Source: a virus
Lineage: Duplodnaviria > Heunggongvirae > Uroviricota > Caudoviricetes
Reading direction: 5' to 3' (one strand)
IMG/VR virus record: IMGVR_UViG_2681813274_000009
Length of the DNA stretch: 5,767 bases
Positions 2,955 through 5,767 of the stretch are shown in pieces. The position numbers were made by a program, and so were the translations under genes. The notes under the pieces were generated by a model. That model did not search any database and had not been told where the DNA came from. It saw nothing but the letters and a program-made list of their open reading frames with translations. The first letter of the stretch is position 1; every line of letters starts with the position of its first letter.

Positions 2955-3380
2955 TCAATGTACTGCCACAGCATTTCCTGCCGGGCCACCACGGTTCATC
3001 TGATTGAAACCGGCGATTGCCACTGCGACAAAATCATCAGCGTCTCTCACCAGTCGTTCATGCGTCTCCACCAGTTCCCGAAAATAAGCTGAACTGTGGC
3101 TGCGCATTCGAGCCACCAGCGGAGGTGGCATTGCCCTTTCGATCGCAGGTAACAACGCCTGAATTTTTTCAACAGCGTCAGGGGTGTCTTTATCCAGCCA
3201 ACGGAAAATCTTTTGGGTGTTGAGATAAAGCGTGTTGTGCTTGCTGTCGTTATGCAGAACCGGAAACGTCATTCCCAGTTCGAAATAAACCCTGGTTATT
3301 TCAGCTGCCGGAACTTTTTCACCGTCCGGATGCGCCCAGGCTTTCATCGCCATGCGGATGTGTTCATGCTTGATTTTCAT
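2955..3380 (-). CDS. ydaT: YdaT-family protein (CII-like regulator in Rac-type prophages), 141 aa
   Basis: ATG at 3378-3380 overlaps the stop of the upstream Cro-like gene (ATGA overlap). The N-terminus MKIKHEHI... and the position between the Cro-like gene and the replication genes match my recollection of Rac YdaT. Family call is from memory, not a search. Confidence 0.6.
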   Translation of the reverse strand: MKIKHEHIRMAMKAWAHPDGEKVPAAEITRVYFELGMTFPVLHNDSKHNTLYLNTQKIFRWLDKDTPDAVEKIQALLPAIERAMPPPLVARMRSHSSAYFRELVETHERLVRDADDFVAVAIAGFNQMNRGGPAGNAVAVH

Positions 3381-3640
3381 GAATCAACCCCCGCCGATGG
3401 TTGTGTGTTAGCCTGAAACTCAGCAGGCAAGCCGTCAGTTGGGTTGGGGTAGGTTTTACTGTCAATCTCATGTGGGGTCACCACCCATCCCGTTGCTTCA
3501 CACCAACGTAATATTTTTTCTCCTGTAAGTTTTGCACGCCCCGTTATAACGTGGCTGACCATCCCTTGGGATGCGCCAACAATCTCAGCAAATGAACTCT
3601 GGGTTATATGAAAATGATGCAAATATTCTCCAAGATTCAT
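3377..3640 (-). CDS. ydaS: Cro-like HTH regulator, YdaS family, 87 aa
   Basis: Preferred start is ATG 3638-3640 (MNLGEYLHHFHITQSSFAEIVGASQGMVSHVITGRAKLTGEKILRWCEATGWVVTPHEI...), with AGGGCGG upstream. The track ORF extends further 5' through the N-run to 3763, which I consider an artefact. It is divergent from the repressor gene. HTH motif (SQGMVSHVITG) and the TPHE motif typical of YdaS/Cro-like proteins. Confidence 0.7.
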   Translation of the reverse strand: MNLGEYLHHFHITQSSFAEIVGASQGMVSHVITGRAKLTGEKILRWCEATGWVVTPHEIDSKTYPNPTDGLPAEFQANTQPSAGVDS

Positions 3641-3762
3641 AATCCGCCCTATGTGATGTGTTACCAATGCATAATTAATAGCACTGTTATTTTTAAAAGT
3701 AAATAGTGATACTATTTCAAAGTGATTAGCAATCTTATTAGAATNNNNNNNNNAGAAAATCA
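3641..3762. promoter_or_regulatory. Divergent OR-like control region with operator palindromes and candidate promoters
   Basis: Perfect 15-bp palindrome aatagtGATactatt at 3702-3716 and related site aatagcACTgttatt at 3677-3691 (centres 25 bp apart). Candidate plus-strand promoter TTCAAA (3716-3721) - 17 bp - TAGAAT (3739-3744), placing the transcription start in the masked 3745-3753 run, close to the repressor start codon. The 120-bp AT-rich spacer lies between divergent repressor and Cro-like genes. Confidence 0.5.
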
Positions 3763-4248
3763 TTGTCAGACACCGACCTCAACGCCGCCAGAAGACTGAA
3801 AGAAATCTGGATGGCAAAGAAATCTCAGTTGGGATTGACTCAGGAACGTGCGGCGGAAATTATGGGGTTTTCAACACAAGGGGCGGTAAGTCACTACCTA
3901 AATGGTCAAACCCCACTAAACCTTGAGGCTGTTCTAAAGTTTGCTGGCTTACTGAAAGTTCCCCCTGAGTCAATCAGGCCAGACATGGTAGATTTGCTGC
4001 AAATTGCAAGGATGTATTGTCGAGAACCACAGCAAGATAACATAGTCGCATTACCAGCAGACACAGAACAAACAGAGGATGAACTACCGTTTGCCGTAGA
4101 GCCGATGGAACGAGATTTAATCCATACGTTCAGAGCTTTTCCGAAAGAAGATCAAGAACACATGCTTCAGGAGATGAAAGATAAAAAAGAATCAATGGAT
4201 CGTACGGTTGCGCGGTGGTTAGCTGCACAAAAAGGCCGTCGCGCCTAA
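3763..4248 (+). CDS. XRE-family HTH transcriptional repressor (prophage repressor / RacR- or PaaR-like), 161 aa, no visible S24 peptidase domain
   Basis: N-terminal HTH (LTQERAAEIMGFSTQGAVSHYLNGQTPLNLEAVLKFAGLLKV) and an acidic C-terminal region. The start is uncertain: TTG 3763 follows the N-run directly with a weak SD, and ATG 3811 is an alternative. Stop at 4246-4248. Located where cI sits in lambdoid phages. Confidence 0.75.
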   Translation: MSDTDLNAARRLKEIWMAKKSQLGLTQERAAEIMGFSTQGAVSHYLNGQTPLNLEAVLKFAGLLKVPPESIRPDMVDLLQIARMYCREPQQDNIVALPADTEQTEDELPFAVEPMERDLIHTFRAFPKEDQEHMLQEMKDKKESMDRTVARWLAAQKGRRA

Positions 4249-4267
4249 ATCAGAGGAGATATGTAAA

Positions 4268-4462
4268 ATGAGTACAGTCCTTTCCCCAATGGTTTCAGAA
4301 TTTGAGACAGTTGAGCAAGAAAATAGTTACAACGAATGGCTGCGGGCCAAAGTAGCAGCAAGCCTCGCGGATCCCCGCCCGGCGATTCCGCATGATGAGG
4401 TAATGGCGGAAATGGAACAAATTATTGCCCAAATTGCTGCTGCAACTCACAGAGGTGAATAA
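4268..4462 (+). CDS. paaA: Small antitoxin, PaaA2-like (partner of ParE-family toxin), 64 aa
   Basis: GGAG SD 9 nt upstream of ATG 4268. Stop TAA 4460-4462 overlaps the toxin ATG by 1 nt (TAATG). The sequence MSTVLSPMVSEFETVEQENSYNEWLRAKVAASLADPRPAIPHDEV matches my recollection of the intrinsically disordered PaaA2 antitoxin of E. coli O157 prophages. Recalled, not searched. Confidence 0.6.
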   Translation: MSTVLSPMVSEFETVEQENSYNEWLRAKVAASLADPRPAIPHDEVMAEMEQIIAQIAAATHRGE

Positions 4463-4777
4463 TGTTACCCGTTTTATGGCTACCATCTGCTCGTGATGAT
4501 TTGCGCCAGATCGTAGCCTACATAGCTAAAGAAAATCCCGCGGCAGCACGCAGAATGAAAATTCGAATTGAAACATCCGTTTTGCCGCTCACAGAGCATC
4601 CTTACCTGTNNNNNNNNNNNNNNNNNNNNNNNNNNNNNNNNNNNNNNNNNNNNNCTTGGTCTTCGTGAAATTGTAACTCATCCTAACTACATCATCCTTT
4701 ACCGAGTAACAGCATCAAGCATAGAAGTAGTAAATATTGTGCATTCTCGAAGACAGTATCCAGGCAAAAACAGTTAA
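4462..4777 (+). CDS. parE: ParE/RelE-family type II toxin (ParE2-like), interrupted by a 45-nt N-run with a frame mismatch across it
   Basis: N-terminal part 4462-4609 (MLPVLWLPSARDDLRQIVAYIAKENPAAARRMKIRIETSVLPLTEHPYL) and C-terminal part 4655-4774 (LGLREIVTHPNYIILYRVTASSIEVVNIVHSRRQYPGKNS) both show ParE/RelE hallmarks (DL..I..YIA..NP.AA; Y.I.YRV....IEVV.I.H.RR). The two parts are in different frames relative to the 45-N run. Stop at 4775-4777. Confidence 0.7.
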
Positions 4778-4792
4778 TTATTCCCGCCGACA

Positions 4793-4833
4793 GAACCACC
4801 NNNNNNNNNNNNNNNNNNNTAGGGTGGTTTTTT
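4793..4833 (+). terminator. Probable rho-independent terminator downstream of the toxin gene (stem partly masked)
   Basis: CCACC (4796-4800) and GGTGG (4823-4827) are complementary arms, followed by TTTTTT (4828-4833). The loop or extended stem lies in the N-run 4801-4819. Confidence 0.4.
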
Positions 4834-4851
4834 CTTGCCCCAACAAAAAAC

Positions 4852-4894
4852 AATAGCGATGCTATTTACATCAAAAAAAAATAATGATGCTATT
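4852..4894 (+). promoter_or_regulatory. OL-like operator pair with a candidate early-left promoter
   Basis: Perfect palindrome aatagcGATgctatt at 4852-4866 and related site aataatGATgctatt at 4880-4894, same consensus as the OR sites. Candidate promoter TTTACA (4865-4870) - 17 bp - TGCTAT (4888-4893) overlaps both sites. The -10 is weak (3/6). Confidence 0.45.
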
Positions 4895-5075
4895 GTTTCA
4901 GGCGTCAACCCACCCCGCCCCACAGAATGCAGGGCAATACTTCGAGTTACCAGACAGTGGTCAGGGGTTAAGTAGCCAGCCCGAGGCGTAAGAACATGAC
5001 GGCAGGGTTCAATCTTTAACTATGCAGCAGGTTTTTTGTTCCGCCACCCCGGCGTTAAGGGGAAATGAGGTCAGC

Positions 5076-5228
5076 ATGGATACTATCGATCTTGGCAACA
5101 ACGAATCTCTGGTGTGCGGCGTGTTCCCTAACCAGGATGGAACGTTTACCGCCATGACGTATACCAAAAGCAAAACGTTTAAAACCGAATCTGGCGCGCG
5201 TTGCTGGTTAGCCAGAAACACTGACTGA
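5076..5228 (+). CDS. Small hypothetical protein (50 aa), first gene of the putative early-left operon
   Basis: ATG 5076 has GAGG 5 nt upstream. The track's ATG 5022 has no SD. Protein MDTIDLGNNESLVCGVFPNQDGTFTAMTYTKSKTFKTESGARCWLARNTD. Its position resembles ydaG/ydaF of Rac, but I cannot confirm identity. Confidence 0.5.
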   Translation: MDTIDLGNNESLVCGVFPNQDGTFTAMTYTKSKTFKTESGARCWLARNTD

Positions 5229-5239
5229 TGAGGCTGACG

Positions 5240-5605
5240 ATGGAATTTAAAGATTTACCGTCTGATGTACAGAAAACAGCAGCTCATACATTGCATTCTG
5301 TGCTGCGAGAAATCGGGAAAGATATTGCAAGCGAGCCAGCAAAAGATCTGGCCCGGAAAATCAAGACCGCTTTCGTTGAGCTTTATAATGTTGGCACTGA
5401 CTCTGAAACTGTCGAGACCAAGACCGTAAGTTCACCAATATTCTCACTTGAGCCAAGCGTATTATCAGGTGAAATATGCACCGAGATTTCCAGCGAACTG
5501 CTTCCGGTAATACGAGAAGCAATTCGCCGTCGCGGTTTGGATGGAAGTTATGATCATGACGTTCTGCAAGTTCTCAGGACAATGGTGACTTCACTGGGGA
5601 TTTGA
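5240..5605 (+). CDS. Hypothetical protein (121 aa; 125 aa if started at ATG 5228)
   Basis: ATG 5240 has GAGG (5230-5233) 6 nt upstream. The alternative ATG 5228 overlaps the upstream stop (TGATG). Stop at 5603-5605. No recognisable motif; sequence MEFKDLPSDVQKTAAHTLHSVLREIGKDIASEPAKDLARKIKTAF... Confidence 0.55.
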   Translation: MEFKDLPSDVQKTAAHTLHSVLREIGKDIASEPAKDLARKIKTAFVELYNVGTDSETVETKTVSSPIFSLEPSVLSGEICTEISSELLPVIREAIRRRGLDGSYDHDVLQVLRTMVTSLGI

Positions 5606-5767
5606 TCCCTGCGTCCTCTAAGCTTTTGATATAGCGGTCCTCCAAGAAGCGGTAAATTTTGTCGAAATCATCTTTTCCCTCTGGTTTATTCAGAGGATTA
5701 CAGGACCCGTAAGTAGCGGCATACATTTCAACCGTTTGGTAATGACTCCAACTTATTGATAGTGTTT

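Follow-up and report, generated by a model that had tools for sequence, protein, structure and literature searches.

Paired palindromes around a repressor, antitoxin and toxin operon: probable OR and OL operators in the immunity switch of a lambdoid prophage

The stretch of viral DNA analysed here (IMG/VR virus record IMGVR_UViG_2681813274_000009; 5,767 nucleotides, hereafter the window) carries four copies of a 15-bp palindrome, AATAGY-N3-RCTATT, arranged as two pairs on either side of a repressor operon. Open reading frame (ORF) listing and Pfam scans identify the window as a lambdoid prophage immunity region, in which the cro-like and ydaT genes are read leftward (minus strand), and the repressor, paaA and parE genes are read rightward (plus strand), followed by a terminator and by the promoter PL with ydfA. 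The four palindromes, joined by a weak fifth at 3725–3739, are in all likelihood the right (OR) and left (OL) operators of the immunity switch. An earlier note on this DNA, made from the letters alone, had read them as operators of a helix-turn-helix (HTH) repressor, located in OR-like and OL-like regions and controlling both early promoters, and sequence comparison supports that reading. The motif tracks the repressor's DNA-binding domain, not the cargo genes or the C-terminal domain; in every relative, the sites fall across the −35 and −10 elements predicted for PR and PL; the repressor head is homologous to that of lambda CI; and the same architecture has been shown experimentally for the related prophage CP-933P (PMC8630535). 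The operon itself was given in the note in the order repressor, toxin, antitoxin; the actual order is repressor, antitoxin, toxin.

All four sites are present where the earlier note had placed them (Table 1), two with exact arms and two with one mismatch, and the spacings it reported within the pairs, 25 bp between OR1 and OR2 and 28 bp within OL, are both as measured from start to start. Its description of the exact sites as perfect palindromes is correct for the 6-bp arms and incorrect for the centre, where GAT is asymmetric. The exact pattern matches twice in the window against 0.00 expected, and none of 200 dinucleotide shuffles reaches two; with up to two mismatches there are four matches against 0.47 expected, and again none of 200 shuffles reaches four. 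A repeat search made without the pattern recovers the same four copies and adds 3725–3740 (families D1 and D2), and the OR and OL pairs emerge as inverted copies of one module (repeat I1). The scan of the whole prophage for further copies suggested in the note can be read from the prophage of E. coli RMDEC465 (L001), which is ~96% identical to the window: over 49 kb, from the integrase to truncated tail genes, only the four OR and OL sites are found at one mismatch or fewer. The operator reading would have been undermined by a motif equally dense in unrelated DNA, and the shuffles and the 49-kb relative agree that it is not.

The fifth copy, a candidate OR3, starts 23 bp from OR2 in the window, a distance of 23–24 bp across the family. 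At the same position, relatives from Citrobacter, Salmonella and metagenomes carry sites with a single mismatch (ATTAGTAAAACTATT, ATTAGCAATACTATT), which suggests a tripartite OR whose third, weak site lies over the repressor promoter PRM. A third OL site was sought upstream of OL2 and none was found; OL shows only two sites.

The register between operators and promoter hexamers is the same at PR and PL, and in every relative examined. O2, the better site of each pair, ends in ...CTATT and runs into the −35 element (TTTACT at PR; TTTACA or TTGACA at PL), and 17 nt past the −35 the outer half of the weaker O1 forms the −10 element (TATTAA at PR, TATTGT at PL). The PR elements were read from the sequence and keep this register in all relatives. 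As the earlier note had it, the OL-like pair lies beyond the terminator, where it overlaps the predicted hexamers of a PL that faces ydfA. On the other flank of OR2, the centre of the site falls near −42/−43 relative to the predicted PRM start; lambda CI activates its own PRM from OR2 at about −42/−43. The repressor ATG lies 6–7 nt past the PRM −10 element in all relatives, which leaves no room for a Shine-Dalgarno sequence, and the repressor mRNA is therefore probably leaderless. Precedents for a leaderless mRNA are cI and paaR2 (PMC8630535).

The strongest support for the operator reading comes from comparison across loci. Loci were gathered by repressor type from E. coli, Shigella, E. albertii, Citrobacter and Salmonella, among others, and scanned with the window-derived pattern; five loci came from a contig collection with one genome per species. 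Ten loci with a lambda-like head, totalling 62 kb, contain 42 sites at one mismatch or fewer, and 42/42 fall at OR or OL. Each motif locus has two or three OR copies, and OL is normally a pair, its members mostly 25 bp apart (range 24–26 bp); in the Citrobacter locus L002, one OL site is found at one mismatch or fewer and its partner at two mismatches. This layout is constant whatever follows the repressor, be it PaaA/ParE, HigB/HigA, HipA_2 with DUF3037, or nothing. The cargo slot between the repressor and OL is itself variable (L013/L014, 3112–3839; L015/L016, with L015 3287–4860; L017/L018).

Conversely, seven control loci (38 kb) contain no site at one mismatch or fewer. Three of these controls (L019, L025 and L026) have the same C-terminal domain and PaaA/ParE with other heads, and lack the motif; relatives from Arsenophonus and from metagenome assemblies (≤41% identity), also used as controls, have diverged recognition helices and no motif. 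Two of the controls carry repeats of their own at both OR and OL: ACTTTTAAAGT in L019, and dyads of the AAAACTGT...ACAGTTTT type in L025, an E. coli O157:H7 locus that is probably CP-933M. The L025 dyads are long (ACAATAAAAAACTGT...ACAGTTTTTTATTGT, at 1990–2050 and 3030–3075) and accompany a 434-like repressor head. Among 31 distinct sites of the motif family, the outer AATA/TATT is invariant, positions 5–6 and 10–11 prefer G/C-type bases, and the central three bases drift. A symmetric C-to-T/G-to-A difference between the window and the E. coli OR2 was considered as evidence of dimer contacts and set aside as weak, asymmetric C/A combinations being common in relatives. By this comparison of sequences, the sites are shown to belong to the specificity module of this repressor head and this Cro.

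In the repressor, a disordered linker joins an N-terminal HTH domain like that of lambda CI to a C-terminal domain of two helices, which is of the PaaR type. The protein was listed in the earlier note as a 161-aa HTH protein; in relatives it has 166 residues, and its ATG in the window lies within a run of N. The N-terminal domain matches PF01381 (HTH_3) and, by sequence search, is homologous to the lambda CI N-terminal domain (E 1e-9, ~39% identity), including the N-terminal arm. An AlphaFold2 (AF2) model of the protein, with a mean predicted local distance difference test (pLDDT) score of 77, gives target-normalised template-modelling (TM) scores of 0.81–0.93 to structures of the lambda cI N-terminal domain, PDB 1rio being among the top structural matches. 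The recognition helix TQGAVSHYLN is invariant across the ten lambda-like-head loci, and the counterparts of the acidic, sigma-contacting positive-control residues of lambda, E34 and D38, are E33 and E37, neither of which varies in the family.

In the AF2 model, the C-terminal domain is a pair of helices of ~50 aa. The repressor has no Pfam match to Peptidase_S24, and therefore RecA-mediated cleavage and induction are not expected, a point also made on RecA-dependent induction for PaaR2 (PMC8630535). Over the last 44 aa, it shares 52% identity with the C-terminal domain of PaaR2 (E 4e-15), the N-terminal domains being unrelated, and over 64 aa it shares 56% identity with an O157:H7 protein of 133 aa that has a 434-like head. 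It is also shared by tandem two-HTH proteins of 244–255 aa; these repressors (P0018, P0020 and P0022, from L015–L018 and L002) carry a lambda-like and a 434-like HTH in tandem before the shared domain. In the loci of the tandem proteins, AATAG-type operators are present, and a search for operators of the 434-like type, as in L019, found none.

The Cro-like protein has a recognition helix, SQGMVSHV, resembling the TQGAVSHY of the repressor, and the two proteins are 38% identical over 48 aa across the HTH (E 5e-7). The form (S/T)QGMVSHV is found in the Cro of every motif locus, and other helices in the control loci. Proteins that share their operators would be expected to show such likeness, and by its helix Cro very probably does read the same sites as the repressor.

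Experiments on lambda and CP-933P are the model for the binding, the order of occupancy and the PRM activation proposed here. A repressor dimer would bind each AATAGY-N3-RCTATT site. At OR1 and OR2, repressor would cover the −10 and −35 elements of PR and turn off the cro-like gene and ydaT; at OL1 and OL2, it would likewise cover the −10 and −35 elements of PL and turn off ydfA and the early-left genes. The OR2-bound repressor would probably stimulate PRM, the source of its own leaderless transcript, and at high concentration the repressor would fill the weak OR3 and repress PRM, a form of negative autoregulation. The Cro-like protein would compete for the same sites. With paaA and parE presumed to ride the PRM transcript, the toxin-antitoxin pair would therefore be expressed with the lysogenic state. 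By the same analogy, cooperative binding and looping between OR and OL through the PaaR-type C-terminal domain are plausible; the OR and OL sites lie ~1.1 kb apart in relatives.

Several observations weigh against the operator reading or against parts of it. The perfect sites are at position 2 of each set, whereas the strongest lambda sites are at position 1. The invariance of the outer bases is in part a matter of ascertainment, given that the scan pattern came from the window. OR3 taken alone is at chance level in the window, with 10 matches at three mismatches or fewer against 4.7 expected. The automatic promoter scan called PRM and missed PR and PL, and promoter-like matches in the region are no commoner than in shuffles, so the promoters are consensus-level predictions. 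The last point concerns the A-run between OL2 and OL1 (4871–4879), which is A9 in the window, A8 in two Shigella sonnei contigs (L022 and L023) and A6 in two E. coli genomes, giving OL spacings of 28, 27 and 25 bp and PL spacers of 20, 19 and 17 nt, respectively; the outlying 28-bp spacing of the window is due to its A9 run. If A9 is real, both PL and cooperative binding at OL may be impaired in the lineage of the window; equally, the run may be a homopolymer assembly error and not genuine slippage. Among the promoter-like matches, which occur at chance frequency, is a leftward one at 4908..4881.

Because the sites flank an operon carrying paaA and parE, and it is common for type II antitoxins to bind palindromes within the promoters from which they are expressed, the palindromes might be operators of the PaaA-ParE complex, in a classical type II autoregulation. 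The probability of this is minimal, and for practical purposes comparison excludes it: the motif goes with the head of the repressor, and PaaA lacks a DNA-binding domain, its sole Pfam match being PF21217, in keeping with what has been reported for the PaaA2 family (PMC8630535). The same layout recurs in loci where the repressor is followed by HigBA, by HipA_2 or by no toxin-antitoxin pair; the motif is absent where PaaA/ParE accompany another repressor head; and the OL pair lies past the terminator of the operon, facing another operon.

It is harder to separate the repressor from Cro. The sites could be read only or mainly by the Cro-like protein, with the 166-aa protein recognising something else in the same region, and the Cro helix indeed co-varies with the motif as strictly as that of the repressor, so that sequence alone cannot tell the two apart. 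We consider this highly improbable nonetheless. The two recognition helices are similar (QG.VSH), as they are in lambda and 434, where repressor and Cro share operators. OR and OL show no other conserved family of repeats, and the CI of an Stx2 phage with a related head has the motif in its OR. In CP-933P, moreover, the footprints of the repressor PaaR2 and of the Cro counterpart YdaS overlap (PMC8630535).

A further alternative, very unlikely in our view, is that the repeats reflect promoter architecture shared by a duplicated PR and PL, or are relics of a cryptic prophage without present regulatory function. The PR and PL modules are inverted copies (I1), which makes part of the repetition a matter of promoter duplication; the 20-nt PL spacer of the window suggests decay; and CP-933P-like prophages are cryptic (PMC8630535). 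However, promoters have no need of dyad symmetry, yet it is kept while the centre drifts, and the motif recurs at OR3, where the promoter context is another. In other immunity types the promoter layout is retained and the palindromes differ, and relatives have intact reading frames for the repressor, Cro and the toxin-antitoxin pair. Operators read by the repressor, and very probably also by Cro, thus remain the preferred explanation of the palindromes.

Table 1. Operator sites, predicted promoters and genes of the immunity region (window coordinates).
Feature	Position	Strand	Description
OR1	3677..3691		AATAGCACTGTTATT, 1 mismatch; over PR spacer and −10; position and sequence kept in all relatives
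OR2	3702..3716		AATAGTGATACTATT, exact arms; 2-nt overlap with PR −35; abuts PRM −35
OR3 (candidate)	3725..3739		ATTAGCAATCTTATT, 3 mismatches; over PRM spacer and edge of its −10
OL2	4852..4866		AATAGCGATGCTATT, exact arms; overlaps PL −35
OL1	4880..4894		AATAATGATGCTATT, 1 mismatch; outer half forms PL −10
PR (predicted)	3675..3703	−	−35 TTTACT 3703..3698, 17-nt spacer, −10 TATTAA 3680..3675; drives cro-like gene and ydaT
PRM (predicted)	3716..3744	+	−35 TTCAAA, 17-nt spacer, −10 TAGAAT; 9/12 matches in promoter scan
PL (predicted)	4865..4896	+	−35 TTTACA 4865–4870, −10 TATTGT 4891–4896; drives ydfA and early-left genes
Repressor gene	3745..4248	+	166 aa in relatives; mechanical ORF from TTG 3763, ATG masked in 3745–3753
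cro-like gene	3377..3640	−	87 aa, HTH; ATG at 3640
YdaT/CII-analogue gene	3380..2955	−	PF06254
paaA (antitoxin)	4268..4462	+	PF21217, E 3e-23; 3zbe, E 1e-23; PaaA2 family
parE (toxin)	4462..4777	+	directly 3' of paaA; frame broken only by N-run 4610–4654
Intrinsic terminator of repressor-paaA-parE operon	4794..4833	+	in relatives AACCACC-TTAG-GGTGGTT and T-run
ydfA (DUF1391)	beyond terminator and intergenic region		read rightward from PL
Replication genes and DUF1627 gene		−	from ORFs and Pfam

The two S. sonnei contigs are nearly identical to the window. The window contains four runs of N (1320–1892, 3745–3753, 4610–4654 and 4801–4819), and comparison with relatives indicates that their lengths are not true: 9 N stand for 13 nt, 45 N for 20 nt and 19 N for 1 nt. 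The first codon of the repressor gene is masked by one of these runs, another interrupts the reading frame of parE, and a third stands in place of the terminator loop, which consists of 19 N in the window. The frameshifted look of parE and the 161-aa length of the repressor both arise because the N-runs misstate the masked length. An intact parE relative matches 5cw7 (E 7e-37; ParE2-like), and the PaaA and ParE of the window are closer to the second O157:H7 copy, in L025, than to PaaA2/ParE2.

An exact copy of the YdaT operator TTGATTN6AATCAA (TTGATTTTCATGAATCAA) lies at 3370–3387, across the cro stop and the ydaT start. The motif is taken from the study of YdaT in CP-933P, in which this OM site was footprinted (PMC9986795), and its presence implies, by analogy, a PRE-like arrangement at the cro/ydaT junction here too. 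To the right of the operators, positions 4906–5075 form a ~170-nt untranslated leader from PL to ydfA, which is almost identical in loci of four immunity types, has matches in about 4,400/5,426 E. coli genomes and is where the immunity cassette has its right-hand mosaic boundary. An Rfam search of 3300–5767 returned nothing relevant and no match for the leader, and RNAalifold gave it a consensus fold with 2 covarying pairs only. The leader could be a nut-like or put-like element or a regulatory 5' untranslated region.

A broader reading of the family, which we hold to be rather unlikely, is that the PaaR-type C-terminal module is an exchangeable, non-cleavable oligomerisation cassette, combined with at least four heads and with matching Cro and operator swaps, and that the A-run acts as a switch of PL and of cooperativity. 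The heads may comprise the lambda-like head of the window, the 434-like head, the PaaR2-like head and the tandem two-HTH form of 244–255 aa. If the cassette part were true, the two-HTH forms would be dual-specificity repressors; if the A6/A8/A9 part were true, a slipped-strand run would tune PL strength and repressor cooperativity.

The operator reading supplies a defined operator sequence and a promoter map for an immunity type common in prophages of Shigella sonnei and E. coli, with related repressors in thousands of assemblies and without a characterised representative or a deposited phage genome. It should help to predict which superinfection immunity group a lambdoid prophage belongs to and to choose orthogonal repressor/operator pairs. 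The AATAGY-N3-RCTATT operator, the lambda-like head on a PaaR-type tail and the Cro that goes with it make up a heteroimmune specificity that has apparently not been described before. Literature searches found no paper on an AATAGY-N3-RCTATT operator, and for 'PaaR1' they found type VI secretion papers only; the source databases give the proteins described here generic names only. Deposited phage genomes contain no copy of the immunity region, with a DNA-level match to the ydfA leader only; at the protein level the repressor is absent from them, the best match being an N-terminal domain of 52% identity.

That match belongs to Shiga toxin 2 (Stx2) phages of the Oslovirus type (e.g. Lyz12581Vzw), whose CI head is 52% identical and has the recognition helix TQGAVSQLLN. 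One exact AATAGTCTAGCTATT lies in the cI/cro intergenic region of such a phage, its OR; across the 5.3 kb examined, the motif has no other clear copy. Unlike the repressor of the window, the CI of these phages has a cleavable S24 (LexA-type) C-terminal domain, and PaaA/ParE are absent.

The likeness to lambda extends to the layout of the switch. OR is tripartite in both, with centre-to-centre spacings of 25 and 23 bp here and of 24 and 23 bp in lambda; at the lytic promoters, the −10 falls under O1 and the −35 under O2; O2 also adjoins the PRM −35, and O3 sits on PRM; and a second operator set stands at PL, past accessory genes that follow the repressor (rexAB in lambda). The systems differ in operator sequence, in that two OL sites are evident here, in the CII analogue, which is YdaT here, and in the C-terminal domain of the repressor, a ~50-aa two-helix module here in place of the S24 autopeptidase/oligomerisation domain.

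The closest known design is that of CP-933P (Sp12) of E. coli O157:H7, described by Jurenas et al. 2021 (PMC8630535) and, for YdaT, in a separate study (PMC9986795), in which OR and OL enclose a repressor-plus-cargo operon with PaaA/ParE in the rexAB position (PMC8630535, PMC9986795). Gene order and orientation are the same in both prophages, the counterparts in CP-933P being paaR2-paaA2-parE2 with ydaS-ydaT, OR, OL and PL. The two share a peptidase-less repressor with an antitoxin of the PaaA2 family and a ParE toxin after it, a ydaT gene with its operator at the cro/ydaT junction, a probably leaderless repressor start, repeats both in the divergent intergenic region and at the promoter beyond the toxin-antitoxin genes, and a nearly identical leader 3' of PL. 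In CP-933P, OR is footprinted by PaaR2 and by YdaS, each of which represses PR, PRM and PL; PaaR2, an octamer in solution, stimulates PRM when its level is low (PMC8630535). PaaR2 itself was recovered in the CP-933P-type locus L026, where it starts MQKKE as published.

The differences from CP-933P lie in specificity: the repressor and PaaR2 have unrelated heads, the Cro falls into a different specificity group, and the repeats of CP-933P are of the GTTTAGTAA type, not 15-bp AATAGY-N3-RCTATT dyads. Accordingly, GTTTAGTAA repeats were sought in the OR and OL of the window and none were found, and the motif of the window is absent from L026. The understanding of how such switches work is unchanged; the design is already known from CP-933P, and its occurrence here is well supported and useful and not surprising. 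With the window and its relatives, the CP-933P design, in which a peptidase-less repressor and a toxin-antitoxin cargo are locked between OR and OL, becomes that of a family with swappable DNA-binding heads, and not a one-off.

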